Part shown: positions 5,001-63,074 of the stretch, in pieces
Layout of the letters: each line of letters begins with the position of its first letter
Position numbering within the stretch: position 1 is the first letter of the stretch
Assembly: GCF_964194155.1 (NCBI RefSeq)
Contig: NC_135891.1
Coordinates: 86,986,001 to 87,050,000 of the forward strand
Length of the DNA: 64,000 nt
Origin: Cetorhinus maximus
Lineage: Eukaryota
Reading direction: 5' to 3'
The notes under the pieces: generated by a model
Told to the model about the DNA's origin: nothing
What the model saw: only the letters and a program-made list of their open reading frames with translations
Database searches by the model: none
Made by a program: the position numbers and the translations under genes

Positions 5001-7257
5001 TATTTACCATTTTTGAAACTGAACCTTCAATATGAAAATCTGTCAGTTTGTACCTTCTAGAGATTGAGAAAATAACTTCCCACTTTTCCTTTATGATGCA
5101 ATAATGCCTAGTGTTTAGCAGCAGATATGATATGCTACTTTAGTATTCTTGGCAGAAGAACAAAAATAGTCACTTGTAATATAGGGAAATACAGCAATAA
5201 ACCTGTATAAAGTCCCAAGGTGACTAAATCTGTTTAGCGATGTTAGTTGAGGGATAACTACTGGGCATCTTGCTTTTAAAAAAATCTTTTACAGCCACCC
5301 AATAGGTCTGGGTCCTCAGATTAATGCTTTCATCTGAAAGTTAGGGATGCATACCTGAACATGCCTTCATTTCAATCTTCTGAAGGGCAGGTAGAATACA
5401 ATATAAAACAATTGCTTCAGGGCAGACTTCAGATCAGAGCAGAATTCACACATGAATTCTTAATCCTCTACTTGGGTGGAGCCATGTGACAGTTAGAAAT
5501 TGTAGCTTAATTATACTTGGCAACTAATTGATTCTTTGCCTGATCTCGAAAAACTTTAAAAATGATTTTGCACTTATTTAGGAGAATTCTAGTTCCTTTT
5601 AATTATCACCAGGCACCAAGCTTACATTTCAGAAAAAAGGTTCCTTGTGTCCAGGGGGTCCCAAAGCAAAATATTCAATTATTTTATTCTTAATGAACAG
5701 GCACCATTAAGGCAAATTTTAGCCTTTAAATTTCAGGCAACTAAAATACTGTATGCTCCAATCTTACTTTGAGGCTCCAGCTTGTCTATAATTGGCTTGG
5801 CACCACTGACAGCCACAGCTGAGATGGTCTTCACTCCCTGCTCAGCAACATCACAGACAGTCTTCACATATGGATGGTTCTCCTTGGTGCTGTTGTATGC
5901 AGCTGATACCATGTCATAGGCAGAGCTCACTAGAAGCAGGTTGGTCACCCTGTCCACCACATTCTGAAACAAGTCATGGAATCACCAGATCATTGCACAG
6001 TAATTCATTCCAATGAGGCAAGGGACAAAAGAAACTGCCCAGTACAGTTCTAGAAAGAATAGCTGGACTTTTATAGCAACTTCCCATACCCAGTGTAAGG
6101 AAATGCTTACAAAATAGAAAAGATTGCACAATCATCCTAAAAGATTATGCAAGGATTTTAGTATATCAATTTGTACATTTAGTGAGCATCTCAGATACTT
6201 TGTCTAGTTCAGCATAGTTCTACCTATAATTTACAGCAACCACTTTAGGTACTGTTCAGTATCTCTTGTTAGACCAGACAAGAAATAGAAGTTACAATAT
6301 GGAAACTAGCCATTCAGCCCTACTACTTTGGGTTAGTTCAGGCAGAAAAAGGGTTAATGACCTCAAAACATCAAATTTTTAAAATCTCTCACCACAGGTG
6401 CTGCCAGACATACTGAGCATTTCCAGCAATAAGCTTCGAGATTTCATTATGGGTCAGTATTTGCCAATTATGAGCAAGTCATCATTCCAATCAAATACCC
6501 TTCCTGTTTCACATATCTTATCCTGCCCCTATCCTACCCCCATCTAATTTTGATAGGGTGTAGCTTCTGTCTAGAGCTGCAATCCCAAAATGGAACACTA
6601 GACAACATCAGCTTCTCTCATCCGTCCGTTTTGAATTATTAACAGTTACAACAATAAATAACCTTAATAAAAAAAAATAGTTCTTTTGGCTTCATTGAAG
6701 CGCAAGGAATAAACAAAAAAATGATAAAGAACTGAACAGTTGGGAGAGGGCCAAGTGTTTTGGTGAATCGAGTTTTGGGGGGGGGGGGGGGGTGGAAAGA
6801 GGCCCCTTTTAAATGAACATTAAATTATAAATGCGCTGCTGCTTAGTTTTTAAAAAAATATATTAGTTTGCCTTTTACAATAGAAGCTCTTAGACGAATT
6901 TTGCAGCTATTTCAAGGCAATGAAAGTTAAGTTTGTTGCAAATTAGGCCAAAGGTCACAATACCGAGTGCTTGAGTCGATGAGTAATATTTCCCATCAGA
7001 ACAGAAAGTAACTCCCCGACCGCAGGCCCTAAACTCGTGCTAAACAGGTCATCATCTTACACTGTACAATGGGAGGATTTCTCAATAGATTGCGGTAGTT
7101 AGTAACTATAGAGTATTAGTTATCAAGTTAGAAAGCTAGAAACACACCCATCCACACTTGCTGCCACAGGGAGTAGTTAAAGTACCTGTTGTTCCCCGTT
7201 CTCCTGGTGCTCCGGTGGGTTGGAGACCGCAACATTTTCGGCTACTTCCGACGCCAT
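1875..7257 (-). CDS. PLIN3: Perilipin-2/3-like gene A (partial; exons 7-8 lie left of the window). Coding exons 7186-7257, 5768-5963, 4289-4371, 3465-3750, 1875-2062
   Basis: Spliced translation [24 protein letters not shown]|[32 protein letters not shown]...KLEPQ|[28 protein letters not shown]|[11 protein letters not shown]...[10 protein letters not shown]|[12 protein letters not shown]...[12 protein letters not shown]...NTMDL. Canonical GT-AG sites, consistent phases, exon sizes 72/196/83/286/188. Residues are mixed PLIN2/PLIN3-like, so the symbol is tentative. Confidence 0.92.
2180..2900 (+). mobile_element. CR1 LINE 3' fragment
   Basis: [10 protein letters not shown]...LGLYSL...[15 protein letters not shown], followed by a CR1 3' UTR. 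Confidence 0.88.
3465..3750 (-). CDS. Gene A exon 5 (11-mer amphipathic repeats)
   Basis: 286 nt, [27 protein letters not shown] repeats. Confidence 0.93.
4289..4371 (-). CDS. Gene A exon 4 (PAT domain, second part)
   Basis: 83 nt, [28 protein letters not shown]. Confidence 0.92.
5768..5963 (-). CDS. Gene A exon 3 (PAT domain)
   Basis: 196 nt, NVVDRV...KLEPQ, cag|...|gtaag. Confidence 0.93.
6945..6957 (+). promoter_or_regulatory. DR1 / PPAR response element-like site in gene A intron 2
   Basis: aatt-AGGCCA-A-AGGTCA. Confidence 0.55.
7186..7257 (-). CDS. Gene A exon 2 (start exon)
   Basis: ATG at 7257; donor CAG|gtact; acceptor at 7274-7275. Confidence 0.85.
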
Positions 7258-7935: not shown

Positions 7936-10335
7936 TATTGTAGGTACGCAAAATATTAAAGTAATACTAAACAGTAATGTTTTTATCAGCTGACTACAAG
8001 TGAGATCACAAGATAATAATGGACCAAAGAAGACTATTTGACTCAGTTCACTCATTCAGCCTGTCCTTAATCGGCACCATCCAATTGGTTCTTAAAATAT
8101 TCACAGAATCACAGAGTGCTGAAAAGGCCCTTCGGCCCATCGAGTCTGCACCGACACGTGAGAAACACCTGACCTACCTAATCCCATTTACCAGCACTTG
8201 GCCCTTGAATGTTATGACGTGCCAAGTGCTCATCCAGGTACTTTTTAAAGGATGTGAGGCAACCCGCCTCCACCACCCTCCCAGGCAGTGCATTCCAGAC
8301 CGTCACCACCCTCTGGGTAAAAAGGTTTTCCCTCACATCCCCCCTAAACCTCCTGCCCCTCACCTTGAACTTATGTCCCCTTGCGACTGACCCTTCAACT
8401 AAGGGGAACAGCTGCTCCCTATCCACCCTGTCCATGCCCCACGTAATCTTGTACACATCGATCAGGTCACCCCTCAGTCTTCTCTGCTCCAACGAAAACA
8501 ACCTAAGTCTATCCAACCTCTCTTCATAACTTAAATGTTTCATCCCAGGCAACATCCTGGTGAATCTCCTCTGCACCCCCTCCAGTGCAATCACATCCTT
8601 CCTATAATTTGGCGACCAGAACTGCACATTGTATTCCAGCTGTGGCCTCACCAAGGCTCTATACAACTCCAACATGACCTCCCTACTTTTGTAATCAATG
8701 CCTCGATTGATAAAGGCAAGTGTCCCATATGCCTTTTTCACCACCCCACTAACATGCCCCGCCACCTTCAGAGATCTATGGACACACACGCCAAGGTCCC
8801 TTTGTTCCTCAGAACTTCCTAGTGTCATGCCACTCATTGAATACTTCCTTGTCAAATTACTCCTTCCAAAGTCTATCACCTCACACTTTTCAGGGTTAAA
8901 TTCCATCTGCCACTTATCTGCCCATTTGACCATCCCGTCTATATCTTCCTGCAGCCCAAGACACTCAACCTCACTGTTAACCACCCGGCCAATCTTTGTG
9001 TCATCCGCAAACTTACTAATCCTACCACCCACATAGTCATCTATCTTGTTTATATAAATGACAAATAATAGGGGATCGAACACAGATCCCTGTGGTACGC
9101 CACTGGACACTGGCTTCCAGTCACTAAAGCATCCTTCTGTCATCACTATCTGTCTCCTACAACTAAGCCAATTTTGAATCCACCTTATCAAATTACCCTG
9201 TATCCCATGTGCATTTGCCTTCTTTATAGGTCTCCCATGTGGGACCTTGTCAAAGGCTTTGCTGAAATCCATATAAACTACATCAACTACACTACCCTCA
9301 TCTATACACCTGGTCACCTCCTCAAAAGATTCAATCAAATTTGTTAGGTATGACCTCCTTCTGACAAAGCCATGTTGACTATCCCTGATCAAACCTTGCC
9401 TCTCCAAGTGGAGATAGATTCTCTCCTTCAGAACTTTCTCCAATAGTTTCCCTACCACTGACGTGAGACTCACTGGCCTGTAGTTCCCTGGCTTATCTCT
9501 GCAACCCTTCTTAAATAGCAGAACCACATTAGCTATTCTCCATTCTTCTGGCACCTACCCCGTGGCCAGAGAGGAATTAAAAATTTGGGTCAGAGCCCCT
9601 ATGATCTCCTCCCTTGCCTCCCTCAGCAGTCTGGGTCACAAATCATCTGGACCTGGAGATTTGTCCACTTTTAAGCCTGCCAACATCCCCAATACCTTGT
9701 CACTCCCTATATCAATTTGCTCAAGAACTTCGCAGTCTCTCTCCCCGAGTTTGATACCTTCATCCTCATTCTCTTGGGTGAAGACGGATGTGGAGTATTT
9801 GTTCAACGCTCTACTGATGTCCTCTGGCTCCAACCGTAGATTGCTCCCTTGGTCCCTTATGGGCCCTACTCTTTCCCTGGTTATCCTCTTCCCATTGATA
9901 TACCTATAGAATATCTTAGGATTTTCCCTACTTTTACCAGCTAGAGCTTTCTCATATCCCCTCTTTGCTCTCCTAATTGCTTTCTAAAGCTCCACCTTGC
10001 ACTTTCTGTACTCCACTAATTTGCTTCCCTTGTATCTGCTAAAAGCCTCTCTTTTCCTTCTCATCATATCCTGAATATCTCTGGTCATCCATGGTTTTCT
10101 GGGCTTGTTACTCCTTCCTATCACCCTAGAGGGAACATGTTGAGCCTGTACCCTCCCCATTTCCTTTTTGAACGCCCCCCACTGCTCTTCTGTAGATTTC
10201 CCCACAAGTAGCTGTTTCCAGCCTACCTTGGCCAGATCCTGCCTTATTTTACTAAAATCTGCTCTCCCCCAATCCAAAACATTTTTTTGCAACTTGTCTA
10301 TTTCTTTGTCCATAACAAGCTTAAATTGTACCATA

Positions 10336-10626
10336 ATAAAAGCAAAATAATATGGATGCTGGAAATCTAGAACAAAAACAAAAATACCTGGAAAAACTCA
10401 GCAGGTCTGACAGCATCTCCGGAGAGGGATACAGTTGACGTTTTGAGTCTGTATGACCCTTCATCAGAACTAAGAAATATAGAAATGTGATGAAATATAA
10501 GCTGGTAGAAGAGGGTGGGACAGGAGAGCTCAATAGGGGGGGCAGTGATAGGTGGAGGCCAAGAAGAGACTGCCAAAAATGTCATAGACAAAAGCGCAAA
10601 GGGGTGTTGATGGTGGTGATATTCTA
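10336..10626 (-). mobile_element. Penelope-derived terminal-repeat fragment inserted in the CR1
   Basis: Interrupts CR1 ORF2 between SDHN and MVQFK; matches 63075-63365 and 14720-14850. Confidence 0.8.
10433..10471 (-). ncRNA. Minimal hammerhead ribozyme motif (G12 mutated)
   Basis: AGUU-CUGAUGA-A-GGGUC auaca GACUC-AAAA-CG-UC-AACU. Confidence 0.5.
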
Positions 10627-13149
10627 CTATGTTGTGGTCGCTATCACTAAAATGCTCTCCCACCACCACCTCAGCCACCTGTCCGGCTTCATTCCCCAGA
10701 ATTAGGTCCAGCACTGCGCTGTCCTTTGTTGGACCCTCTACATATTGTCCTAAAAAGTCCTCAAGTTTCAAAAGTTTCAAGAAATCCACTCCATCCAAGC
10801 CCTTAACACTATGTCTATCCCAATTAATGTTGGGAAAGTTGAAATCACCTAATATAATTACCCTATTATTATTTTTACACACCTCCGCAAATTATGCACA
10901 TATTTGCTCCTCAATTTCCCGCTGACTGTCAGGGGGTCTATAATAAACACCTAACAATGTGGCTGCCCCTTTTTTAATCCTAAGCTCTACCAACAGAGCT
11001 TCATTCGATGCCCCCTCCAAGATATCATCTCTCCTTACTGCAGTAACTGACTCCTTAACATATTCCAGGGTATTTGGCTGCAGTGGGAGTCTGTTGGTGT
11101 GTTGACCATTCTGTGTGAAGAACTTCCAGATATTAGTCCTAAAATTGCTTTTGAGCTGCCTAAAAACAAAATACTGCAGTTGCTGGAAATCTGAAACAAG
11201 ATCACAAAATGCTGGAAAAACTCAGCAAGTCCAGCAACACCTACAGAGATAACAAACTAGTTCAATGCCCACTTGCACAAGGCTCAAGGCTCTGTATGCT
11301 CTGCTCCTGCATGATGCCCTATCCTACCTCAGCCGGCATTCACCCAGCGGTGAGTGGGAAACACCCAAAAAGTGTGAGGGCACTGGGGTGGGGGTGCTGG
11401 GGAACGGATCCTCACTGTCAAGCACTCAGTGCCTGATCAGCGGATCCAGCATCAGGATGGTGGTGGTAGGGGGTGGGTGGGGGCGGAGCCTGCTGAGAGC
11501 CACCTCCTGCCCTTGCTGCTGACCCTCCTCCCCCTGTGAACCCCAACCTGTGACCTCCATCCTGCAAAACCCCTTCTGCCATCAGTTGCATATTCCTGTG
11601 TCCCTTGGCTATCCAAGGCCTTGGGTGGGCATAGTGCCAGCCTCTGATTGGCTGGCAGCTTTCAGCAGGTGGGACCTCTGCTCCAAGGGTCTGCACTGGG
11701 GGAAGGCTGGCCGCTGTCCAGTTAAGTGCCTCATTGGTACTTCATGAAGCAGGCCTTCCGAAAAGAGACAACGTGGGCTCTTGATGGCTCTCCAGCCAGA
11801 GTATGAGACCTCCCCTCCCATCACTTCAATTAAATACCGCCCACAGTGTGTGAAAAGCTAAAAGTATGGGGAAAATATCAGATATGAGGATAGAGCAGGA
11901 AAGAGGCATTGAGGTAGAAGATCAGCCATGTTCTTATTGAATGGTGACGCAGGCTCAAGTCTCTGTTTGCTCTGTTCCTGCTCTTATTTCCTATGCTCTT
12001 AATAGGCAGGTGAAAGGGAAGCATGACAAACTGACAAAGCAGACCAGGACTCAGCAGTCCAAAAAATATGTCAATCCAGAAAAATGACAAAAGCTGACAG
12101 TCCAAAAACAGTGATTCATGGAAACATGAAGTTAGACTAAAAGTGCAATGGGACACAGGCTTGTGGCTGCAGATATACCAATATTACAATATACCAATAA
12201 ACCAATATTCCATAATTTTATTGAAGAAGGAAACAAATAAAGTACCTGAGAAATTGCTGTTTGTGATATTGACAGATTTAGAATCTGAAATTTGAATGCT
12301 GATGGCATGTTCATGAAATTGTGATTTTCATATTTTATTTGGTGTATTTTCAGACATTTTAGAGCATATGGTGATTTCACCTTTCAAGCCAAATATAATT
12401 TCTCCTGGAATAGATGCAGATATGTTGAAAGTGAAAGGAAATGTAGGGACCTAAAGCACAACTTCACTGGGCCCAGCAAATCTAACCCCAGATATGCCAT
12501 CATAATTTTTATCTTTTGGGATATCTTTTGGGATAGATGTGTAATTATGAACTGTATTGCATTCTTTATACACAAAACAAAACTGCCTCACTTTTGCATG
12601 AGCTCCTGTCGCTGACCTCATGGCAGCCCATAATTGCGATTAGTCAAGTTAGAGAAATGCTGAATTGACTGTTTTAAATAAGTAACTTTAATTTTTCAGT
12701 GGCTTCAGAAGGTATAAGGATGAGTCAATATCACTGAAACAAAACCTTAGAACTGAATTCTCATGAAGGGCCACACCCAAATTTTCACCTGATTTTACTT
12801 CTCAGATGCGAATCAGCATATCAACCATAGTTGATACTGTTAGCAATAGATGATTGCTTAATGCACTGGTATTACCTTTCTCCATCTGTTATTCTAACAG
12901 ACGGGTTAACCTGTTTAAAAAAGTCAACAAAGGAAAGTCAGTAGAAGGTGTAAAGCATTCATTTATTATCACCACAATAATTTCTGGCCTATATTGCGGA
13001 TGTGCACCCAAAGCTGCTGTGTTGGTGTCTGTGGCAATAATGGTTATGAATAGAATCTTCAATAGAAACAATGCCCCCAGTATTAATCAGAAAGCTGTTT
13101 CTGAGAAGAATAGAAATGATTTACTAAATGGTTCTAGGTCTGAACAGGC

Positions 13150-17900: not shown

Positions 17901-19503
17901 CCATGTCACCAACACCCTCTTCGATGATACCTTACAGGAGGAGTTATGAAACTTAGCAATGTGGTTAGAGAATGATGAGGATAATTAGATAGGATGGTGA
18001 AAACAAAGTAGAGACAAAGTCAATGGAAATTGGCGATGTGGGAAATGATGCAGTTTGCATGGACTTAAACACAGCACAACTTAAGGCTAGATGATCAAAG
18101 ATCTTAGTGTCCATATACACATCCTTGAAAAAAGGTGGCATAGTAAGTTTGAGGTGGCTAAAGCTAACATGGACTAAGAGGGATGCATATAAAAGCAGAA
18201 ATCAGAGAACTGATTAAAATCACTGGTTAGGCCTCGGCTATAATATTGAGCGATTCTGGGGCAACACTCCAGAAAAAGATGTAAAGCCTCAAAACAGCAT
18301 AGGGAAATCTGACTAGGGAATGAGAGTCTTCAGTAATGAAAAAGTTAAGAGGGGAACTAATAGATAGTTTAACATTGGTTATCCACTCACTTGTCACAGA
18401 AAATAGAACCCAGAGGTTAGATTTAAAACCCTTAGGTGAAGGAGCTGGAGTGGATGAGGAGAAATCTTTCCAGGATTTGGATGCTGTACCAAGAGTGGAG
18501 GAAACTGATTCCATTATTAATTTTAAAGGGATTGGGTAGATAGTTGAGGAACTTGCAAGGTAACAAAAAAAGCAAGGGTGTTGAACTAAGCAACAGCACA
18601 GGCACAATGGGATGAATGACACTTGTTGCCATTTCCAAGACTGTGGCATGAATTCATCTACATTTGAAAGAGACAGTTAAGTGGAAACAAAAGGGGTTCC
18701 AATATTCTAGGAAATTGTACAAGAGCATAACAAATGGCTGGAGTGAGAAAGGCAGATTGTTTTAAGAGGACATTAGTCATCAGGGTGGCATCCTGATCTC
18801 ACCTTGTTCAATACCAAATGAATCAATAAGCTCAATCAAGGATTACCTGACACTTGGAATATGCTATTGCTGGTATTCCAGATGCACACCAGCAAGCTAG
18901 TTATGGTCATCACTCAAGAGTGATGGTCAGTTCATAAAACCTGACATTGAAAAACTAACATTTAATGTACCTGCAAGAGCTGGGTTGGTTAAACTTAGCT
19001 TAAAAGAACAAAAATATTGAGATCATGCTGATCAGGATATAGAAATTGAGAAACAATTGCTGAAGACTCAGTCCTTGTGAAAGGATAGGTCCAGGATTGA
19101 AGGGAGGGAAAGATTAACACAAGGCAAATGATTTTACTTGCAGCAGCATGTAACCAGGAAAAAAAAAAAGTGTTCAATATCAGCAGTGGATTTAGGGAAA
19201 AATTGACTGATAGAATGGCTTAGCCTAATTTGTTCGGTATGCATTTGTTTATTATAACTGGAAAGTACATAGAAGTATTCAAGTCAAGCAGCATTATAGT
19301 GGTAATAAAAATCATGCTTATGAAGTAGAATTCACATTAGTCTTAAACCATTCCTAATCAGAACTATCCTTACTCAAGACAGCAGATATTGTAAATATAT
19401 TCATACCCAGAGATAATTGGAGAAACAAATATACAATTCAATAAATGCCCATGATAATGGAAGGAAAACCCAAATCTATTGGGACACCTCAGATTGCTTC
19501 ATT

Positions 19504-19851
19504 TCAAGTTGACCCCTGAGCCTCCTGATTTTCAGTCAGCTGTGGGGTAAAGGGCCCCACTAGCCAGTTAAGGGGGGTGTTGTGACACAGATAGTCCATC
19601 ACCCCATCTATTGCCTCTTGGATCTTCTGCATTTGCTCTTTACTCTGGGTCAGGAATGGTGTTGAGAGATCTTGGAAGGAGGTGGCTGATGAAAGTGAGC
19701 TGTAGATCTCCTCTGCTAACTTACAGACATGCTGCACTTGATCCTCAATATTCTGAGGCAGACCACGAACATTTGAAGCCAGGGTTCGGCAAATGGTTTG
19801 GAGCTGGTCAGAGAAATTCTGAGTCATGGCCAGTGACTGAGATTCAAGACG
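19504..19851 (-). CDS. Gene B last exon (four-helix bundle C-terminus)
   Basis: [16 protein letters not shown] motif; stop at 19504-19506; AATAAA on the minus strand at 19248-19253. Confidence 0.92.
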   Translation of the reverse strand, partial: RLESQSLAMTQNFSDQLQTICRTLASNVRGLPQNIEDQVQHVCKLAEEIYSSLSSATSFQDLSTPFLTQSKEQMQKIQEAIDGVMDYLCHNTPLNWLVGPFTPQLTENQEAQGST

Positions 19852-22800
19852 CTGCAATATTTAAAAACAAACAAACATTTAGTTTTAGCCTATAAACTTT
19901 CCTTTGAAGACAGGGAGAAAGTACTTGCAAATTATTTGCGACAGCTAGTTTAATAATGAGAACCAGTTTAGGGAAGACTATTTAGGAATCAAAAAAAAGC
20001 ACACTTCAAATTACACCACAAACCATTCCCTGTTCAACCAAAGACTGAACCAGACAGTTAAAATGACAAAGGTTGCAACAGATGAGCTTCTGAAATCACC
20101 ACATTACCTACTTTAGGTCACATACTGTCAGAATGGTCATCCATGTCCAGAAATTACTTATTAAATTTCTGGATCTGCCTCCCAAGATCATGTACTGAGT
20201 TTTGGAATGAGAGATCAAGTTTACCAACTAGAAAAATCCCACCAACCCATTCCTTTGCCTTCATTTTGAATTTTCATCCTGCTTTTCAAATCCCTCCATC
20301 TTTCCTTCTCCCATCACCTTCTAGGATCTCTGCACATTAATTGACATCATTCCCATTTGTTATGCCTTCACCGCTTATATCCCAAGCTCCTGTAACATCC
20401 AACCAAGCTTTTGCCATCTACCCCAATAGCTAAGGAGCTGTGTCAAATTATGCTAGTCTGATTATGCCTTGGGATGCTTTATTATGTTAAAAGCAAGTTG
20501 TGTAAACATAATAGCCTGTTATAAGAGATTTTGGCATTGACTGAAGGACAAACGGTTGCCTTGACAGCCAAATCCTCTGGGTAAAGATTGGAGGTCATAG
20601 CCACCTTAAAAATGGATTCCTCTGAAAAAAAAAATCTACTAATATTTAAATAGTGTTAAAATTTGCATTTGATAACCACCCTTTGGAAGGATAAGATTTT
20701 GCTGTACCAGGGGTGTTGATGGTAGGGTTAGTGCTAATTAACCAACTCATTAGGGATGATTGACCTGTTTACAATTTCTGTCATAAGCCTTCACCCAGGT
20801 GGTTGCCCTTTTATGCCACTTGGCTAAAGGAGGTTAGAGACTATTATTTAATTTAATTAAGGATCCTGTCATTTGATGTTAAAGTTAAAGTTCTTACTTC
20901 AGTTTTTTCTGACAGCTCTACTTCTGCTTGATCACCCAACTGGTGCTGTCCCCAGTTGAGCAAGATCTGACTTAATTTGGCTTGAATCTCTTGGAGTTTG
21001 CCAGGAGTTGATTCAGCCCCTTTCTTGGTCATTTCAATCTGGAAATACATAAGTTGTTGGGAAGATATTCAGCTTCCAAGCAGGAATAACTTTCAAGCAT
21101 CCCCATTCAGAACACCATTCCAAAATTGAAGAATCAACTACATCATGAATACTTAACTGTACTGAATTAATTCTAAAGAAAGAGTAACTTGAACTATTCA
21201 AAGATCCTATAGTACATATGGAAAAAGGATAACAGCTTACATAGATCTATGGGGTGGTTAGTGTACAGTCTTAATTTTTTAGAATGCATAAATCGTTCAG
21301 CCCAACTAGTCCATTAGCATTATCCTCTATTTACTCCTCTCCCATGATTATCAAAACAAAAAAATTTTACTAGATGCAGTTCTTCAAAATTCTTGTTGGC
21401 CTTGAATGGAGTAGAAAAAATGAGCACAGCTAATATAGCATCCAAAAAAAGCCAGTTTTTCTTACCAGATCTACAAGGCTGCGAAGGCGAGAGAGTGTTT
21501 CCTGGCCATTCTCCTTGGCTTTCTGCATTCTCACTATGGAATACTCATATGCACGATTGTGAGCCTTTGAGGATAAAGATCCTAAGCGTACATAATAACT
21601 CTGCTCTTGTACTGTTGCAGTATCAGAATCTTCAATGGGAGTGGAAACTTTAGCTGAGACAGAAACAAAGTCTTCAGGTTGAATATTGGAGATAATGAAT
21701 GGGAGGACTTAGAAAAGTCTTTCCCCAAAATAAGCTCATATGCTAAGTCAACAGAAAATGCTTGATAAAGCAAACCAGAACCAAAGTCAGACTGGAGGAA
21801 GAATAGCCAGCCAGGTTGTGATTAAGATCTGGTTTAAAAGCTCAAGTAGATCAACAGCCAAGGATAATAAAAATTGATTTACAAGGAAGATAACATGAAT
21901 ACAAAGTTTCAGGTTTCTAGTTACCTAGTTCTTCCTTGGTCATAGGAAGATAGTAATCAACCAGCTCCTCAGTTTTGAGGAGAGAAATATCCACACCAGT
22001 AGCCAGGAGCTGACCCACAGCACTGGCACCTTCAACCACAATTGCTTTAGTTCTTTCCAGTTTGTCTTGTACTGCAGTTTTTACAACCTCAATTGCTGTA
22101 TCTTTTACATCAGCCAGGGTCACTAGATTCCCTGTTTCAACAAAGACCTGCAAGACAATGGATGTGCAGCTCAATTTGATGATTAAAAATGGCTGTTTAA
22201 ATGTTATGTACAGATCCATGAAAATATTTCACCTTTTTAAAAATTCTAGCTAGTTGCCAGATACCATAGATGCGCTCTTTTTTGGAAGCGAAGAGGCCGG
22301 GGGGGGGGGGGGGGGGGGGGGGTGGGTGGGAGAGAAAGAGGAGGAGGAGAAAGAGAGCAGGCACAAAGGAGGAAAGCCCTGCATTAGCAGGGAGAGCTTT
22401 TAAACCCAACATTTACAGCAGCTCCCACTCCAGGGTTCAATAGTAGTATTGGACCAGCAGTTCAAGAGCTTGAATGCTGTCAGTGAAATTAAAGATAATA
22501 TATCTGGGAACTTTGACCTCACAAGAGGGGAGAAAGAGATAAAGATTTGTTTGAAATCTGTTCATCCAATAACCTTCAGGGAACCTACCACACAATTTTA
22601 GTCACTCAGTGCCCTCTTAAGGTAGCCTTGTACATCAAATAACCAAGCCACAATTGTTTTTTTAATTGTTGGATTTAAAAATTGTAAGCAACCAAAAGTT
22701 GTAGCCTTAATTGGCTGCAACACTCCAACCAAGTTGACAATGCAATTTTCTTCAGGAGACTGAAGTCCTCTTGGAAAGAATTAAACACCAAATCTTAGTG

Positions 22801-23050
22801 TTCTGTGTAATAATCATTGCAGTATAGATGTACACTCATGGCTATTTAGGCAAGATACATTTATTTAAAAGGAAACACTAACCTCCATACCCTAAACAAA
22901 AAAAAAATCTTAAATATCAAAAAGTAGATTTAAATAAGCTAACATTTCATTCAAAAAAAAAATCATACTCCTTCCCCAAAAGCAATTAAATACCTGCTGC
23001 TTCCTGCTTTCTGCAGTGCTGGGAACCTGTTTTTCTGTTGTTGATGCCAT
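19504..23050 (-). CDS. Divergent perilipin-like gene B lacking the PAT-domain exons (about 318 aa). Coding exons 22994-23050, 21925-22147, 21466-21653, 20898-21038, 19504-19851
   Basis: MASTTEKQVPSTAESRKQQ|VFVETGNLVTL...DYYLPMTKEEL|AKVSTPIED...[12 protein letters not shown]...LVDL|IEMTKKG...SEKTE|RLESQSL...[14 protein letters not shown]...GST*. All exons open, GT-AG, phases compatible. Confidence 0.85.
20898..21038 (-). CDS. Gene B exon 7 equivalent
   Basis: 141 nt, IEMTKKGAES...KLSQILLNW. Confidence 0.88.
21466..21653 (-). CDS. Gene B exon 6 equivalent
   Basis: 188 nt open frame with [24 protein letters not shown]. Confidence 0.9.
21925..22147 (-). CDS. Gene B exon 5 equivalent (shortened repeat region)
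   Basis: 223 nt, ends LVDYYLPMTKEEL|gtaac. Confidence 0.88.
22507..22519 (-). promoter_or_regulatory. DR1-like site in gene B intron
   Basis: Minus strand AGGTCA-A-AGTTCC. Confidence 0.4.
22994..23050 (-). CDS. Gene B start exon (exon 2 equivalent)
   Basis: Polypyrimidine tract plus cag acceptor, CACAAC-ATG-G context, ends QQ|gtatt like exon 2 of genes A and C. Confidence 0.75.
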
Positions 23051-23347
23051 GTTGTGCCAAAAATCCTGCAGAAGTAAAAAAAAAAAAAAATTGGCTTCAC
23101 TTTAAATGGTCACCACCTAAAAATTAAGAACCATATAGTATGTAATAGGGACAGGCCTCAACAACATAGCAACTTACATCCACCTTCACACACTAATTTG
23201 TAAAGCAATAACTCAAATCACAGACAACTTAAATAGGAGTCTACTAAAATACAAGAGTTCACAAATTTTTCATCATTTGCACAAAATTAAAGCAACTCAA
23301 CCACACAAATGGTATAGGAACAGAAATGATCTTAAAACAATCCATTC

Positions 23348-23510
23348 CTCACCCTCAACAAATTTACTCTTCTCTAACCTCCTCTTTATCAATTGCTTAT
23401 GCAATACATTTATATACCCATCAGATGGATGGGCTTGTTTCAATAATAAAAGAAAATCTAACCAATAGAAACTCACAAAATTAACAAACTTGCTGTCATC
23501 AACCAATGCT
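23348..23510 (-). promoter_or_regulatory. Putative gene B exon 1 and TATA promoter
   Basis: Donor gtgag 23348-23352; TATATAAA (minus) 23409-23416; TTGCATAA C/EBP-like site (minus) 23397-23404; two CCAAT motifs near 23462 and 23503. Confidence 0.55.
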
Positions 23511-24069
23511 GAGAGTGTTAGAGGAGGAATGTTAATACTCCTCAATCACTCACAGCCTATTCCAATCAAAAGCAAGGCTAATAAATTGCAAAGGGGGCTG
23601 GGACAATTGGGAGGGTTCTTAAGGTGCAGTTCAAATAAGTGAAGTATTAAAGAAGAAAAGGGTTATCAAAAAAATGAGAGAGGTGGAAATCTTCTATGGG
23701 TAAAAGTTTTGTCCAGTTCAGGAAGGACCCAGGTTAAATTCCTAGCCTGTGTTGTTAGCAGACCTAAGCTAGGCTGCTATGGTGGGTCTGAATGCTAATG
23801 AGAAAGGCAAGGTGTCACATTTTGAGATCTTTTGATCATCTTTCAACAGAAATATCTCAGAATTAGTTATTTTAAATGATGCATGCTAAAACATAGTGGG
23901 GAAATATTGGGACCTGTCACAACCATCTTGTAAGTGGTAATGTCCTCCTAATGCTTGAAAATGTAGTGTCAGATGCACATGCTCACTTCTATTAGGAAGT
24001 GTTGATGACCACTGGCCACATATAGACCAACAGATTATGACATACATACTAAAATAAAAACAGAAATGT

Positions 24070-25875
24070 AGAAAATAGGATCAGGAGTAGGTCATTTGGC
24101 CCTTCGAGCCTGCTCCACCATTCAATATGATCATGGCTGATCCTCTATCTCAATGCCATACTCCCGTGCTCTTCCCCATACCCTTTGATGCCTTTGAGTC
24201 CAGAAATATACTTATTTCCTTCTTAAATATATTCAGTGACTTGGCCTCCACAGCCTTCTGTGGTAGAGAAATTCCAATGGTTCACCACCCTCCGAGTGAA
24301 GAAGTTTCTCCTCATTTCGGTCCTAAATGGTCTACACCATATTCTGAGACTGTGACCCCTTGTTCTAGAAACATTATCCCTGCATCTAATCTGTTCATCC
24401 CTGTCAGAATTTTATACATTATACATAGATCCCCTCTCATTCTTCTAAACTCCAGTGAATACAGGCCTAGTAGCTCCAATCTCTCCTCATATGACAATCC
24501 TGCTATCCCAGGAATCAGTCTGGTGAACCCTCGCTGTACTCCCTCTATGGCAAGTATATCCTTTCTTAGGTAAGACCAAAACTGCACACACTACCCCAGG
24601 TGTGGCCTCACCAAGGTCCTGTATAGCTGAAGTAAAACATCCTTGCTCCTGTACTAAAATCCTCTCACAATGAAGGCCAACATACCATTTGCCTTCTTAA
24701 CACTTTGCTGCACCTACATGCTTGCTTTCAGTTATTGGTGTACAAGGATACCCAGGTCCCTTTGTACATTAACAATTCCCAATCTATCACCATTTAAATA
24801 ATAACCCACCATTCTGTTTTCCCCACCGAAATGGATAACTTCACCCTTATCCACGTTATACTGCACCTGCCATATATTTTCCCACTCACTCAACCTGCCT
24901 AAATCGCCTTGAAGCCTCTTAACACCCTCCTCATTGCTCATATTCCGACCAAGCTTCGTGTTGTCAGCAAACATGGAAATATTACATTTGGTTCCCTCCT
25001 CCAAATCATTGGTATATATTGTGAATAGCTGGGGCCCAAGCACTGATCCCTGTGGTACCCCACTAGTCACTGCCTGCCACTTTGAAAAAGACCCGTTTAT
25101 TCTTACTCCCTGTTTCCTGTCTGCTGACCAATTCTAAATCCATGCCAATATATTACCCCCCATCACATGTGCTTTAATTTTGCACACTAACCTCTTATTT
25201 GGGACTTTAACAAAAGTTTCCTGAAAATCCAAATACACCACATCCACTGGTTCTCCCTTATCTTGTTACCTGCTGGTTACATTCTCAAAAAACTTCAGTG
25301 GGTTTGTCAAACATGATTTCCCTTTCATAAATCCATGTTGACTTTGTCTAATCCTGTTGATATTTTCTAGTGTACTGTTGTCACATCTTTTATAATAGGC
25401 GTTTTCCCTACTACTGATTTTAGGCTAACGGGTCTGTAATTCCCTGTTTTCTCCCTCCCTCCTTTTTTAAATATTGGGGTTACATTTTCCACCCTCCGAT
25501 CTGCTGGGACTGTCCCCAAATGTACAGAATTTTGGAAGATGACAACCAATACATCCACTATTTCTATGGCCACCTCCATTAGTGCCCCGGGATGTAGTTT
25601 ATCGGGCCCTGGGGATTTATCAGCTTTCTGTCCCATTAATTTCCCCAGCACTATTGTTTTAGTAATACTAATTTCCTTCAATTCCTCCTTCTCACTAGAC
25701 CCTTTGTTTCCTAGTATTTCTGGGAAGTTATTTGTGTCTTCCTCCGTGAAGACACGACTAAAGTAGTTGTTTAATTGCTCTGCCATTTCCTTGTCCTCTA
25801 TTATAAGTTCTCCCATGTCAGACAGTAAGGGACCTACATTTGACTTCACTAATCTTTTTCTTTTCACATACTTGA
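24070..25875 (-). mobile_element. CR1 LINE ORF2 fragment with frameshifts
   Basis: KSPGPD, GNYRPVSL, GVPQGSVLGPQLF, VQRGFTRLIPG. Confidence 0.92.
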
Positions 25876-26182
25876 AAATGCTGGAAAAACTCAACATTAC
25901 CATTCCCTTTGCCTTGCCTTAAATGACATCCTTGTCATTTAATCTTTCCCACCCTCTAACCTATCCCTGACCTCTTTTGCTCCACTTGCCCTTCCCCACT
26001 TTGTCAACAGCATAAAACCCATCATATTCCTCCTTCTCTTCAGTTCTGAAGAAGAGTCATATTGGACTCGAAACTTTAATTCTGCTTCTCTATCCACAGA
26101 TGCTGCCAGACCTGCTGCGTTTTTCCAGCACTTTGTTTTTATTTCAGATCTCCAGCATCTGCAGTATTTTACCTTTATTATA
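25876..26182 (+). mobile_element. Penelope-derived terminal repeat
   Basis: Same family as 14600-14855 and 63075-63400. Confidence 0.75.
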
Positions 26183-26799: not shown

Positions 26800-28112
26800 G
26801 ACTGTTTCTAGACTACCTTGGCGATATACACAATTGCTTCCCGACCACCCTGGCTCCTGCACACTTGTGCCTGTTGTCTCACCATGTGCAGATCTGTCCT
26901 CTAGCCTATAAAATCTTTTGCCTGAGTGTAAGATCCAGTGATGGTGTCTCTTCATCTTCACTGTCTTCTTCCTCTTCCTCCATCGACTGGGAAGGTTCCA
27001 ATTCTTGGGTACATCAAATGGAAAATTGACAAGGGTCGGATTGGGATGAGGGGGAGAGGAGAAAGTAAGAATTGCATGCTTATTTCATCTGCAACTTGTG
27101 AATCAGAAGAGATTGTGGGATGAGAGGATGATTAGGTATGTAGTTACCATCCTTATTGAGCCTGTCAGTGGCCCATGGCCTCAGTGACACCCATCAGATT
27201 GTCTGCTCATTAGCATATTGCTGCTTGAGAGAGCTTACTGGGTCATTGCTTATTGGCTACCACATTTCCTACATTACAGCTGTGACACCAGTTCAAAATA
27301 TTTCAATTGTTGCAGAACACTTTGGGAGGGCCTGTGGTTATAAATCCAAGTCTTTCTCAGTTCTTTTACCCATGATGGCCAGCACTGCCCTCCATGTGGT
27401 TTAAAACATGCAGGTACCCTTGTTCTAATCCAATTTCTAGTTTTTGCTTGCTGTTATGCATCATTCTCTCCTGAAAGTAAGTGGGAAGTGTGTCAGTGAG
27501 TGTCCTGCAATATGTTTGGGTGATATTGTTAAGGTTGCATAGCCACCAGTGTGAAGATGTAAGTTGTTTGCCTAAGACTTGCAACAGTGCTGAGTATATG
27601 AAGGGGAGATAATTTTTGAATTCCAGGGTTGAGTACTGATTGATAGAGATTGTCGGTAGATGTTGAGGGGTTGTGGTAATTAAACAGTGGATGAGGCTCG
27701 TGGTAGGATATTCCATTTGAAGGTAAACTCACTCACCTTGACAACTTGCGTCAGATTGTTAAACCTCTTCCTGTACTTCATCTGTGTTCGTAATGCAATT
27801 ATCCTGACATTGGCATCCGCTGCAACTTGTACCCAGGTTGTCTTTTGAAAAAATTTGGGCCACTTCTTGTAACCACAATCCACCTCCTCTTTAAGAGTTG
27901 CATGCTGCCTTTAAGTAGGGACAGTCCTCGTGATATCAGAGCCCCTGCTTCTGCTTGCAGTCAATGACTACACAGGGAGTGCTGGTTACATTCAGCAATC
28001 ACTTAAAAGAGTAGGTAGCACCAATGTTCTGCCTGCAATGCTATGAAGGGGTGCAGGTTAATCACATACCATAATCCCCATGCCCATTTTTGGGGTCAGC
28101 CAATATTTCCCC
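26800..28112 (-). mobile_element. Old PIF/Harbinger remnant (Myb/SANT gene fragment)
   Basis: W.QVA...N......RT....RKRFNNL..VVK|gtgagt at 27735-27850; boundaries uncertain. Confidence 0.55.
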
Positions 28113-30251: not shown

Positions 30252-31934
30252 ATAGTGAGTATTAAACATTCCTGGCTACAATGTATTCAGGAGGGATTGG
30301 GAAGGAAAAAGAACACGGCGAGGATGTTTGGGACAGGGGGTGCCGGGGGAGGAGGGGGGGAGGTGGTGAGGATGCGGTGTTGGTTAGCAGTATTGCTTAA
30401 GAATTATATTACAGTTCTTCAAAGATATGGTCAACCAAATAGATTCAATTTTAAACCTCTAGTTTGAGTTAAGGAGCAGAAAAGGAGCTGTTACGTTCCT
30501 GGATGTTTACCGTCAGTGCCCAAATCATGACGAGGATTTAGAAGAGAAAATCTGTAGACAAATTTCCGAAAAATGTAAAAATAATAGAGCAGCAATAGAA
30601 GGGAACTTTAATTACCCTAACATACAATTGGGGGCGAAAACAGGATAAAGAGAAAGGATAACGAAGATTTTCTAAATTGTGGGACAACTTCTTTAATCTG
30701 TATGCTCAATGAGGAAGGAAACAGTGCTGCATGTAGTTCTAAGGAATGAAGTAGGGCAAGTGGAATGTATTGTAGTGGGAGAACACCTCGGTAATAGTGA
30801 TCGTAATATAATTAGGTTTAAATAAAGGTTAAAAGTTATAAGTTGTAAAAAGAAACAAAGAAAAACTAAAGGTAAAATAGTCAGCTGGAAGAGAGATAAT
30901 ATAAGTGATTGGAGGAGGAACCTAGCACAGGTATACTGGAAAAAATATTGTTCTGGAGAAATGACTGAGCAATAGCAGGCCTTCAAGGCTGAGATAGTTC
31001 AAGTAAAAAACAAGAAAATTCTCATGAGCAGGAAGGATCTAAAGCTAGAACTCCCTGAATAACAAAGAAAATAGAGGTTAAAATTAAACCAGTAAAAGGT
31101 TTCTGATAATTAGGTGCAGAATGCAGTAGAAAAGAAGGCAAAAGAGGGCAAGGGAATATTTAAAAAGGGTAAACAAAGTGCAAGAAAATGAGAAAAGGTT
31201 AATGGGTAACACAAAAGGCAACCCAAAAATTTTGTATAAGGATGCAGAATGTCAAAGGATAGTTAAGGAATGGTAGGGCCAATTAGGAACTTAAAAGAAA
31301 ATCTTTTTGTGGAGATACTGAATGAATACTTTGCATTTGTCCTCACAAGAGGATGAAATTAATATTGCAGAAGAGGAGGAGTTTTGGACAGGATAAAAAT
31401 AGACATGGGGCAGAATTTTTAGTTTGGCGGGAGGGAGCATGCCTGACCCATTCGAGTGTTAAATAAAGTGCATTGATGTCAGCTGAGTGTGCCGACATCA
31501 ACGCGCACTCTTGCAATATTTCGCTAGGCGGGTGCACGATGGAGATGGAGGCACAGCCGCCATTAATTAATTGGCCAGTTAAGGCCCTTGAGACACAAAT
31601 TGTTTCAGACTTTACGTAGCCCGTGCGATTTTTAGGCCATCGCAAGGGAAAAACGGGCAGGCGGGGAGGCCACAATTTGCAAAACCTCAAGCACGGGTGG
31701 GATAAGAGGGGCCAGTGGCCTAGTCAAAGCGATTATTGAGGAGTTCAGGATTAGTCAGGATATCACTTGCTGCTGCTTGCTCCTGTGAACAGCACAGCTT
31801 CATCTCGCTTCAGAGCTGCATTCAGAGAATTTAGAGACTTCAGTTCAGGACTCAACTGTTGTCTTCCAGGCCCCTGGAGGATTCACACCGCGTGAGGCCT
31901 TCCAGCTATCAGACAGTCTTCCCTTACACTGGTA

Positions 31935-33160
31935 ATGGGGATTGTGGTCTCCGCTGGAGGCACCTCCTCTGGGGAGGAAGAGAACACCAGAAGTGGGAGG
32001 AGGCCAGGCATCCCTATTCAGCTTCCAGGGGAGCGAGCTGTGGGAGGAGAGGTGCAGGCACAACGGGCGCAGGGCCAACAGGAAGTCCAAGGTGGAAGGG
32101 GCCACAGAAAACGTCACTATCCTGCTGCCAGGGTTTACAGGCAGCGATGCAGCTACCTCAATATGTCTGAGGTTCAGTGCCGAAGGAGGCTCCGTCTCTC
32201 ATAGGAGACAGTGACCTCCATCCGTCAGATGATTGGCCCTGAGATCAACTTCAACTGTGTGGGTGGACACCCCATGCCGATGGCGCTGAAGATCACGGTG
32301 GACCTCAGCTTCTATGTCTCCGGCTCTTTCTAGGGATCAGTGGGTGCTCTTTGTGGAATGTCCCAATCAGCTGTCCGTAGTTGTGTCAAACTGGTAACAG
32401 ATGCTCTGTTCAGGCGTCCATTGACTTTTGTTCTTTACCATATGGATGAGGCCAGCCAGTCTGAGCAAGCCAGAGGCTTCGCAGCGATTACTGGGTTCCC
32501 CTGCGTCCAGGGTGCAAATGACTGCACACATGTGGCCATCAAGGCATCAGCGGGTGAGCCGGGTGTCTTCGTCAACAGGAAGGGCTTCCACTCCATGAAC
32601 GTGCAGATAGTGTGTGATCACAGGATGCTGATTCTACAAGTCTGTGCAAGGTACCCAGGCAGCTCCCATGACGCTTACATCCTGAGGTACTCCCAGGTGC
32701 CGAGGCTCTTCAGTGTTCCAGCCTGACTGGTTGGATGGCTGCTGGGTGACAAGGGCTACCCCTCAAAAGGTGACTCATGATGCCTCTCTGCCATCCAAGA
32801 ACAGAAGCTGAGCAGCTGTACAACAGGAGCCACGCCTCCACAAGGGCTGTGGTTGAGAGAACCATCAGTCTTCTCAAGATACGATTCCGATGCCTGGACC
32901 GTTCAGGGGGCGCACTCCGATACCCCTCAGATTGTGTGTCACTGATAGTGGTTGCATGCTGCGCTCTCCACAATCTGGCAGTGGAAAGAGGGCATACAGT
33001 GGAGGAAGAAGATCTTGACGCAGCTGCACAAGCAACAGTCAGTAGTGGGTTAGAGGATAAGCATGATGAGGAGAACACTGAGGGCATACACGCAGACCTG
33101 GGTAACCTACAGGGAGGCAGGGACACCTGGGAAGCATTGATCCAATGCTCCATTAGATAG
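31935..33160 (+). pseudogene. Harbinger (HARBI1-like) DDE transposase with premature stops
   Basis: GFPCVQGANDCTHVAI, FVNRKGFHSMNVQIVCD, PGSSHDAYIL, WLLGDKGYP, YNRSHASTRAVVERTI, VACCALHNLA. Confidence 0.9.
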
Positions 33161-33488
33161 ACTACCAAATAAGAACCACCACCGCATACCAGGGCTTCAG
33201 GGTCCATACTCGATCCCTGACAGGACCAGTTCCTTGGTTAACAACATACACTACGTGCCTTTGCAATAAAGTTTCAGGAGACACACGTCCGTCATAACAT
33301 CATGGCCTATCCTGCACCTACAGAACAAATGAAACATACAGATGCCAGTTGCACAAAATAACATATCATTTACTTGTGAATGTTAAAAGTCGCAGAAATT
33401 ATCATGAACTGGTGTTTTCCATCACACCATTAAAAAATGAAGAAAAATGGGGGAACCAAATATCATCCGTGATAAGCCCATGTTGTGC

Positions 33489-35330
33489 TTAAGGTGCTTT
33501 AAGTTTTCGCTTGTGGGTGCTACGTCTAGGTGCTCCCCCCTTGCTGGCACTGGCATTGGAGACAGCCTGCTCACCCTGCTGTCTTGTTGGCCTTGATGAC
33601 CTCGGTGGGCATCCTCTGGCCCGTGGAGCCTGTGATGGACCCACTTGGGAGGGAATGGTCAGTTCCACTGCTGGCATCTCCCCAGTCACCACAACCTCAT
33701 CAGATGCCATGGTCATTGGCAGAGGGGTGGAGGAGCTGCTGCCCTCATCCGGAGCGCCATGAGAGGAGCCCACAGAGGCAACAGGCAGCTTGTGCGCCAA
33801 TGTCGCTTTGTACCTCCCTGCTCACCATTGATGGATGGGCACCTAGCTGGGATACTGGGTGCCCAATCCATCTCCCACACTGACACTGACCAGCTGAGGT
33901 TATTGCCGGTGTGAGGGCTTGCAGGTCCGAGCACATCCCCAGGAATCCCTGATTGAGTCCCTGGAGGAGCCTCTCCATGACAGTCGCCACTCTCTCTATG
34001 GAGGAGGCATTGCACTCGGCCATGAGGGTCAACAGAGTGATTATGCTCCGCATGGACTCCTCCACAATGGACACCATGGCACGCATTCCCTCATGTATCT
34101 CTGCCAGATCCTCCCGTACACCCTACTGGACAGCCAGCATCTGCTGCCTCAGGGACGACTCCAGAGGCCCATCATCAGCCACTGACTGAGCATTGTCCTG
34201 TCCCCAGCAGTCCTCAGACTGGGCACTCCCTGCCTCCGCCTGTACCTCAAGTGACTGTAAAGTGCCCTCACCAATGTGCACTGATAGGTTAGACGGCAAT
34301 GTTATGCCCACCGAGATGCTGTATCTGCGCTGGTGCCTGCTCGACAGAGAGGGCGTGATGCTGGTGCGTGGTCAGCATGGTGGTCCTCAGGGGTCAGGGG
34401 TGGGCCTTCAGGCTCCTCATAATGAGCTGCTGGGGAGCCTAACTCGTGAAACTGTCAGTGTGCATGCCTGGCATCCTGATGAGACAGAAATTTGCATCAT
34501 GGTCCTGACCACACCCACCATGGTCTTTTGATTATCAATGGGGATTCCAGGCTCACATCAATATAGAGCCCACACTGGAATGGTAGCAATAACTGACATT
34601 CTCATCTCAGTGCATTGCACTCTTATCTCCCTCTGGCACTCCAACCTCACCACGGCCACTTGACCGAGGTGCATGGCGCCTCTCCAGCTCCAGTACCTCC
34701 TGCTTGTATCGCGAGAGGATGAGGAGATATGGGGATCCTGCCAGTCTGCAACCTTTCAGCATTGTTATGGGATGTTTTCTCCTGAAAGGGCAGAGGAGCA
34801 TTGATTAGTCCGCTCTCTACCTGCAGCGCCATTGCAGCCTGGCCAATCCCACCTGAGGAACACCTCGCAGGTCTCAGCCGATTCGTCACCCTGGGGCCGC
34901 AAGGCACTCAGTCCGAGCAGTCAGGGCTCACCCCCTGGCCAGATCCTGTCTCATTGACATTTGCCACTCACACTCTAACACCTCTGAGGTCCAAGGAGGG
35001 GATGGGCAGCTCTTAACTGCTCTGCAAAGTGACCCATGCCAACACGGTACTCGCCCTTCCTGATCGGAGATCATTGAAGCGCTTATGGCACTGCACTCAT
35101 GTGGGCCTCACAACATCGTGGCTGCTGACCCTGGATGCCAGCTCCTCCCAGGCCTTTTTGGTGAAGAGGGAGAGGTGGGGTGGGGGGGGGGGGGCTGGGG
35201 GGGGGGGGTGGTGGAGGGCCACCTCCTCCCGTCCCTGGTGACAAGGGCAAGGCTGCCACCTTCTCACGAAAAACACCGGGCCAACTGCCCCACCTTCTGC
35301 CCTCCCGCCTGCCGTGTCCACCCGTTACGT
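33489..35330 (-). pseudogene. Harbinger Myb/SANT-like DNA-binding gene (intron-containing, disrupted)
   Basis: KKAWEELASRVSS...RPT*VQCHKRFNDL, next exon EKTSHNNAERLQTG, basic C-terminus RRSTHKRKLK. Confidence 0.78.
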
Positions 35331-36209
35331 TCTTCATTGGCAAACCTTCTGCGTCCCTCGGTGGCAGCCTTCCAGGGCTGCCGAGGCTGCATTTGAATTG
35401 GCTGCCAGTGTTGGACCCAGCGGACTTCGTGCTCCTGCCCCTGCTCGCCCCTTCGCGCACATCCCAGGCTGCATATCATGCCTGGTGGGCCTTAATTGGC
35501 TCGCCTGTGTAAAATCGCGGAGCGCTGCCAATCACAGGCGGGTGTCGGATTCCTGACCATACCCGCCTGCCCCTGCCGATCCTGCACACCAAGGGTAAAA
35601 TTCTGCCCATAGATGCTAAATAGGTTAGTGTCACTCAAAGTTAACAAGTCAGCCAGTTGCGATTGGATGCTGAGGGAAGCTACAATGCAGATAACAGAAA
35701 CTCTGACCATAATCTTGCAGTTATTTTGGAGTGGTGCCGGAGGGCTGGAGGATTGCATATATTGCACCTCTATTAAAAGAAAGGGAGAGGGATAACCCTA
35801 GTAACTGTAGGACAATCAATCTTACGTTAAAATTAATGCTCACTTAAAGAAGCATAGGTTAATAGGAGACAATCAGCATGGATTTGTTTAAAGTAAATCA
35901 TGTCAGATTAACTTTATTGAGTTCTTTAATGAAGTAACAGAGATAGTTGATGACGATAGTGCAATGATCTTATATATATGGATTTTCATAAAAGGTAAAA
36001 AGGTTTATTGTAGACATTTGGAAAATAGAAGCACATGGTATTCGAGGAACTTAGGAATGTAATTGCCTAAGTGAGAGGAGACAGATAATGGTGAATGGCT
36101 GATTTTATTGATGGAGTGAAATATGCATTGGGATTCCCTCAGGGCTTGGTATGAGGAACATTGATTTTCCCGTTATATATAAATGACCTGGACTTGAGTG
36201 TAGGATCAT

Positions 36210-63072: not shown

Positions 63073-63074
63073 AA

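Follow-up and report, generated by a model that had tools for sequence, protein, structure and literature searches.

The stretch of 64,000 nucleotides analysed here and called the window (Cetorhinus maximus, contig NC_135891.1, positions 86,986,001 to 87,050,000; G000:C13:86986001-87050000) contains on its minus strand a perilipin gene, named gene B, in which both exons for the N-terminal PAT domain are missing and the five remaining coding exons form one open frame. B lies between two PAT-bearing paralogs, A and C, and its nearest paralog is a fourth gene of the cluster, D, situated to the left of the window. B is a real, old paralog that has apparently not been described previously. The preliminary description of this DNA had proposed a maintained PAT-less perilipin, and the conservation of B in four shark orders and the open frames of its orthologs bear this out.

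Structure of gene B and absence of the PAT exons

Gene B has five coding exons, amounting to 957 nt and 318 amino acids, and all four introns have GT-AG borders. The start exon (22994-23065) consists of 15 nt of untranslated region (UTR) followed by 19 codons (57 nt, 23050-22994), with the ATG at 23050 in the context ACAAC-ATG-G and a phase-0 donor. The first coding intron (22148-22993, 846 nt, with a poly-C tract near 22300) occupies the site of the PAT exon pair in the paralogs. It is followed by the equivalents of exon 5 (21925-22147, 223 nt), which codes for a shortened 11-mer region and the beginning of the C-terminal domain, of exon 6 (21466-21653, 188 nt), with the YYVRLGSLS motif and the first bundle helix, and of exon 7 (20898-21038, 141 nt, coding). 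The last coding exon, exon 8 (19504-19851, 348 nt), contains the bundle helices, the cleft motif PLNWLVGPF and the stop codon. Upstream, the promoter (23409-23566) carries ATTGG (reverse CCAAT) three times, at 23566, 23507 and 23466, and TATATAAA at 23416; a polyadenylation signal AATAAA is found at 19248-19253. A short non-coding exon 1 (23353-23385, 5' end approximate) is predicted from the sequence, with a GTGAGG donor at 23352, and D has a GT donor in the equivalent position. Rebuilding the gene thus reproduced what the preliminary description had outlined, namely an intact gene of about 318 amino acids with five open exons, a TATA promoter and a polyadenylation signal (AATAAA at 19253) of its own, and a phase-0 start exon ending at 22994, separated by 846 nt from a phase-0 exon 5 at 22147.

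In A and C, exons 3 and 4 measure 196 and 83 nt (279 nt together, phase 0 to phase 0) and encode the region that matches the PAT boundaries of PLIN3, about residues 22-116 (PMC10238389). The PAT exons of D measure 193 and 74 nt. The claim that B retains no trace of the 196- and 83-nt exons held: no PAT remnant was detected in 22148-45100, either by tblastn (best E 0.43) or with a PAT profile hidden Markov model (HMM; best -3.8 bits, compared to 72.6 bits for the control D). The B intron matched exon 3 and exon 4 of D no better than shuffled sequences did (19/200 and 125/200 scored as high), and as it could not be aligned with introns 2-4 or exons 3-4 of D, the deletion breakpoints could not be mapped. 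A search of the genome with exon 3 gave five matches, in A, C, D and genes on C2 and C27, and no orphan PAT exon. The B protein itself reached 2.2 bits with the PAT HMM, versus 181 for A, and so lacks the canonical PAT domain of PLIN1, 2, 3 and 5. Exon 5 is also shorter in B (223 nt) than in D (238 nt) or in A and C (286 nt, 63 nt more than in B), so that part of the 11-mer region of B is gone as well.

Contigs from the same species break at the poly-C tract (22289-22358), and none of the listed pieces spans that whole stretch; bridging evidence was therefore taken from relatives. A 4971-nt contig of run X5 (record 16) and a 2122-nt contig of run X13 (record 13), from two related organisms, each join the sequence from 22365 upwards to that from 22257 downwards with about 55 letters in between, which leaves no room for the PAT exons. 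About 74% of X13 was read, exon 7 being uncovered there, and the raw run X21 had coverage in just 8 of 30 bins, mainly over a repeat. An assembly gap, against which the preliminary description had advised a check, is excluded by these two bridging contigs together with the PAT-less orthologs in other assemblies.

The NCBI model P0002 of Cetorhinus maximus, labelled 'perilipin-2-like', is identical to B over 318/318 residues and has 20 additional N-terminal residues. B is therefore annotated by NCBI, yet not flagged as PAT-less. The extra upstream exon of P0002 (27737-27781, minus strand, 15 codons) has no Pfam match and is probably repeat-like sequence picked up by gene prediction; it was rejected as the likely start of B. 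The open reading frame that contains it (27737-27910, minus strand, no Pfam match) presumably resembles a Harbinger Myb/SANT exon. The Mustelus model P0010 opens with a peptide similar to that of P0002, which reflects either an old common insertion or a recurrent prediction artefact.

Orthologs and records crossing the new junction

Protein searches identified seven PAT-less models (P0002, P0007, P0010, P0011, P0012, P0005 and the B half of P0001) in six species, i.e. Cetorhinus, Heptranchias, Heterodontus, Mustelus (two models), Scyliorhinus torazame and S. canicula, which represent four shark orders. These are six of the 11 shark species with a match in the B subfamily, and the search for orthologs in other sharks suggested earlier was thus successful. 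The start exon is joined directly to exon 5 in six of the seven models, P0010 having another upstream exon. All seven frames are open, and all seven rows score below 3 bits with the PAT HMM, compared to 146-166 bits for non-lamniform D rows.

A search for shorter relatives yielded, from 21 candidates, one match, P0336, and its cluster mate P0337. P0337 (102 amino acids on a 307-nt contig, 95/102 identical to P0002) opens with the first codon of the start exon and runs across the exon 2/exon 5 and exon 5/exon 6 junctions, which corresponds to a genomic span of 1423 nt. P0336 (70 amino acids on a 278-nt contig, 64/70 identical to the B model) crosses the start-exon/exon-5 junction. The two records are intron-less, 91-93% identical to B, and best read as a stray spliced cDNA from a close relative, or a retrocopy of one. 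Either way, their sequence indicates that a spliced message with the predicted 22994->22147 junction once existed, and this junction, a central element of the preliminary description, is now crossed by two public records. Three intron-less vertebrate perilipins are filed under Salmonella enterica, the shark B-type P0336 and P0337 and the mammalian PLIN2-like P0056; they are mislabelled or contaminating eukaryotic cDNA in public databases.

Origin of gene B and selection

At the amino acid level, B shares 67% identity with D and 50-51% with A and C. Its description as a strongly diverged relative of A and C therefore had to be corrected; derivation from A or C by divergence was rejected in favour of a duplication of D, which lies outside the window. 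The promoters of B and D can be aligned (none of 200 shuffles scored as high). For most introns this is not so: intron 1 and those of the PAT region do not align between the two genes, nor does the 3' UTR.

Trees were built with IQ-TREE, using 25 and 23 rows and then again 25 rows; they included only a minority of the A/C-type and tetrapod rows, and the last, used for approximately unbiased (AU) tests, was made without the ray rows. On exons 5-7, all six B rows from galeomorphs fall into one clade (98/98); if the rays are omitted, the Heptranchias B is added to it with 82/80. A separate origin of B in each order was rejected (AU p=0.0002), and a separate PAT loss in Heptranchias was not (AU p 0.145). 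A chimaera protein with an intact PAT domain (166 bits) is sister to B and D together. Given this protein and the galeomorph B clade, the loss of PAT is at least as old as the galeomorph ancestor. The interordinal splits are dated mostly to the Early-Middle Jurassic and the hexanchiform split to near 280-290 million years ago (preprint 10.64898/2026.02.13.705779).

The ray genes fall with B in the tree (94/89), but their branch is very long and their placement accordingly unsure. Within the B/D lineage the PAT HMM scores are graded. Most D rows reach 146-166 bits and lamniform D 94-104; two ray proteins score 0-4, although their N-termini can still be recognised as PAT-derived (0/2000 shuffles as high). 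The D genes of Cetorhinus maximus and Carcharodon show an eroding PAT domain (94 and 104 bits), small in-frame deletions and a cleft motif altered to SPNWLVGPF. In the ray B/D-type perilipins P0065, P0071 and P0075 (Hypanus, Hemitrygon), of which there are several isoform models, PAT is barely recognisable, and the YYVRLGSLS and cleft motifs are altered as well.

In exon 8, the B and D sequences of a genus cluster together instead of separating by paralog (Scyliorhinus 98.6/96, Mustelus 98/97), a pattern indicative of gene conversion. In the history that we propose, the order A-B-C-D would have arisen by tandem duplication of a D-type gene, later than the split from the chimaeras; one duplicate would have lost exons 3 and 4, a phase-0/0 pair, with its frame kept, and the last exon of B would later have been homogenised with that of D by gene conversion in several genera.

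Pairwise comparison of B and D gave a ratio of nonsynonymous to synonymous substitution rates (dN/dS) of 0.48 overall (confidence interval (CI) 0.34-0.68), with 0.26 for exon 6 and 0.24 for exon 7. Exons 6 and 7, at about 0.25, argue for maintenance; the intervals of exons 5 and 8 include 1. Residues specific to B in exons 5-7 are common to several orders. The B-type contigs of X5 show eight synonymous changes, six nonsynonymous changes and no stop (n=14, among 40 of 280 rows). In X13, the exon-5 piece differs at 6/333 letters, compared to 67/1286 upstream (p 0.007).

Protein architecture and proposed function

The B protein is made up of a 19-residue head, a 48-residue 11-mer region and the C-terminal domain. 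It matches the Pfam Perilipin profile PF03036 with 266 bits (cut-off 33) over profile positions 124-402 of 403, and phmmer aligns residues 89-331 of the B model with TIP47 (1SZI; E 2e-54). Foldseek with the predicted structure ranked 1SZI first (E 2.6e-9, TMt 0.69, root-mean-square deviation 10.0), the sole match with E <0.001, and the predicted local distance difference test (pLDDT) is mostly >80 over approximately residues 141-320, the bundle. The segments that correspond to the alpha-beta subdomain, which a PLIN3-type bundle needs in folded form to bind droplets, are conserved in the B sequence, but the model has no strands there. The cleft motif, P(L/V)xWLVGPF (PMC13382019), is exact in four of the seven B rows, among them that of the window, and one residue off in the other three. 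The 11-mer region is contracted (48 residues versus 69 in A) and shows no PLIN4-like 33-mer expansion. B is classified on these grounds as a perilipin by profile and bundle, but not as one of canonical PLIN1/2/3/5 or PLIN4 architecture.

We consider it fairly probable that B is a soluble, exchangeable late coat on formed lipid droplets, predicted to be blind to diacylglycerol (DAG). This reading is based on three observations on mammalian proteins: PAT senses DAG for early recruitment at the endoplasmic reticulum (ER) (PMC13753571, PMC10238389), a PLIN3 construct of helix and bundle (AH-4HB) binds droplets stably in yeast (bioRxiv 10.64898/2026.08.15.745046), and PLIN2 without residues 1-89 is reported to remain stable when not bound to droplets (cited in PMC12921128). 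B would bind via its short 11-mer helix and C-terminal bundle to droplets that are already formed and, having no PAT, would miss the DAG-rich nascent budding sites of the ER, if the mammalian work can be transferred. It may also be stable when not on a droplet; its binding would come later and be weaker than that of A, C and D, tuning the composition of the coat.

Several points weigh against a maintained late coat. The PLIN3 11-mers alone were cytosolic in cells (PMC10238389), and one study saw no binding of the isolated PLIN3 bundle to droplets (PMC6589688). The helix region of B is shorter and acidic (net -2 versus +1 in A), and its helix moment (0.34, p 0.30), like that of A (0.35, p 0.15), is not above that of shuffles; the predicted alpha-beta subdomain is not formed (no strands, low pLDDT). 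One surplus base at 19506 in the B copy of the window, missing from the X5 and X13 contigs, stops the frame nine codons early, so that nine C-terminal residues are lost from this copy (orthologs end ...STEMKQ...PQ). The dN/dS values of exon 5 (0.71, CI 0.38-1.52) and exon 8 (0.76, CI 0.38-1.72) overlap 1, all dN/dS values are pairwise and mix the B and D branches, and the 14 changes of X5 come from 40 of 280 rows. B was not among the matches of five of the 11 species (Carcharodon, Rhincodon, Hemiscyllium, Chiloscyllium punctatum and Pristiophorus), where the presence of D without B may reflect loss or missing annotation. Four of the seven RefSeq B models are odd-starting or fused, suggesting thin RNA support, and P0336 and P0337, filed under Salmonella, could be retrocopies.

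B might instead be functional without being mainly a droplet coat, as a cytosolic apolipoprotein-like bundle or as a modulator contacting perilipins or lipases. We regard this as possible although unlikely. The short, acidic 11-mer region would suit such a role, the isolated PLIN3 bundle is cytosolic (PMC6589688), PAT and 11-mers are both required in cells (PMC10238389), and conservation speaks for function, not for location. However, the cleft motif and the alpha-beta-forming segments are conserved in sequence, and the AH-4HB construct of PLIN3 does bind droplets stably (bioRxiv 10.64898/2026.08.15.745046).

A further reading makes B a superfluous copy, weakly expressed and slowly decaying, whose frame is preserved in part by conversion from D; this appears distinctly improbable. 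B-specific residues in exons 5-7 are common across orders, the unconverted exons 6-7 have a dN/dS of about 0.25, the frames are open in 7/7 models, the promoter shows conservation and there are records that span the junction. Such decay would nevertheless be in line with the clustering of exon 8 by genus, the dN/dS of exons 5 and 8, the five species without B among their matches, the late frameshift in the window and the fact that lamniform D is also eroding its PAT domain (94-104 bits). A collapse of the assembly at the poly-C tract deserves hardly any credence, for although the contigs of the same species break there and no listed piece spans it, in two other organisms a single contig runs across the tract, PAT is absent from orthologs in other assemblies too, the intron-less records join the start exon directly to exon 5 and the genome holds no orphan PAT exon.

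Comparison with known perilipins

PLIN3/TIP47 (1SZI) has a C-terminal domain homologous to that of B, the same exon phases and the same type of PLIN3/4/5 locus; B differs from it by the absence of PAT and by its net acidic 11-mer region of 48 residues (69 in the full-length neighbour A). Contrary to what the preliminary description had assumed, the PAT domain does not strictly define the family, since PLIN4 is a natural perilipin without it (PMC13753571). PLIN4 (S3-12) comes from the same tandem locus (PMC5342826) and carries 29 x 33-mer repeats, while its bundle shows no droplet binding (PMC13753571, bioRxiv 10.64898/2026.08.15.745046). B shares the absence of PAT with PLIN4 but is of the opposite design, with shrunken repeats and a PLIN3-like bundle sequence. 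Because its sister D and the chimaera outgroup retain PAT, the loss in B is independent of that in PLIN4. B as an ortholog of PLIN4 was rejected, its repeats being contracted. Truncated forms of PLIN2 (Plin2-S, delta1-89, the adipophilin of knockout mice) likewise miss part or most of PAT; they are reported to be still droplet-associated, stable off droplets and accompanied by smaller droplets (PMC12921128). Such forms arise by proteolysis or engineering from a single gene, whereas B is a gene in its own right, with a promoter of its own, and is present across shark orders.

The architecture does not appear to be specific to elasmobranchs, contrary to what the preliminary description had suggested. 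'Perilipin-3-like' gene models of a gecko (XP_060101787) and of alligators (XP_014382699, XP_059580476) show the same start-exon/exon-5 join, and kiwi models (P0204 cluster) lack most of PAT; the three rows scored gave <=6 bits with the PAT HMM. These database models, which were not among the rows of the trees, have a much lower similarity to shark B (33-41% identity to P0012), so that the losses were probably independent, and the PAT-less architecture may recur. The P0204 cluster (Apteryx mantelli) comprises 13 'perilipin-3-like' models scattered over many scaffolds, of which 12 have 347-361 amino acids and the one inspected is without most of PAT; the cluster is a possible lineage-specific expansion.

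Shark liver stores oil, and a link of B to this storage is possible. A wider proposition, which we advance as doubtful, is that PAT-less perilipins of helix and bundle are an unrecognised recurrent class, produced by loss of the exon pair in shark, gecko and alligator and by PAT erosion in rays, which would act as DAG-blind coats of mature droplets and serve the oil droplets of the buoyancy liver in sharks.

No description of shark gene B was found in open-access listings and abstract openings, and the main evolutionary paper (PMC5342826) gave no match for 'shark' or 'callorhinchus'. B adds cartilaginous fishes to the history of the perilipins. The role of PAT has so far been studied with engineered fragments, with conflicting results (bioRxiv 10.64898/2026.08.15.745046, PMC10238389, PMC6589688). 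B and D are a natural matched pair, about 67% identical, located in one cluster and differing mainly by PAT; lamniform D with its eroded PAT and the ray gene with its degenerate PAT complete a graded series, which makes the PAT question directly testable.

The perilipin cluster and its surroundings

Gene A (45157-61082, minus strand) is a full-length, PAT-bearing, PLIN3-like paralog with seven coding exons and 452 amino acids. Gene C, 91% identical to A at the amino acid level, is represented by its 5' part (1-7257, minus strand) and extends to the left beyond the window, where it is followed by D, the PAT-bearing sister of B (G000:C13, about 86959600-86963840). The adjacencies A-B, B-C and C-D of this order recur in fused catshark models (P0001, P0343, P0346). 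Concerted evolution, as in exon 8 of B and D, is also seen in A and C, whose exons and adjoining intron sequence are nearly identical (dS 0.11), and the C-terminus of A (45157-45200) contains a short tandem duplication, with PQSEQMIE twice, that is absent in C.

In the human genome, the PLIN3/4/5 locus lies in order with HDGFL2, TICAM1 and UHRF1. Here, a match to an HDGFL2-type LEDGF domain is located about 56 kb left of D, and matches to TRIF-NTD (TICAM1) and SAD_SRA (UHRF) about 4.8 Mb off on the same contig. By this synteny, the A-B-C-D cluster is the PLIN3/4/5 locus. No right-hand synteny neighbour was found within 120 kb, nor any LRG1- or SEMA6B-like neighbour or further perilipin exon in the flanks of about 110-120 kb per side, and a search for MYDGF gave no match, its control being equally silent. 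HAUS6, which we take to be the neighbour of PLIN2, lies about 18 kb from the separate perilipin on C2; the NCBI label 'perilipin-2-like' for B thus does not denote orthology, and B as an ortholog of PLIN2 was rejected on the same evidence. Other matches to the perilipin profile were a PAT-bearing multi-exon gene at C27:5154019 and single C-terminal matches at C25:11216858 and C5:78602240, all candidates for PLIN1, PLIN6 or fragments.

Several transposon remnants surround the genes. A PIF/Harbinger-type remnant lies between B and A (about 31800-35600), with a DDE_Tnp_4 match at 32774-33157 (E 2.7e-13). Decayed fragments of long terminal repeat retroelements are present at about 39900-41900 and 62300-63100, with an RT_RNaseH match at 41345-41836, and similar ones occur in flanking loci. 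Reverse-transcriptase remnants of long interspersed nuclear elements, presumably CR1-like, were found at about 8000-10900 and 24000-26000, the former with an open frame of 458 amino acids (9554-8181, minus strand).

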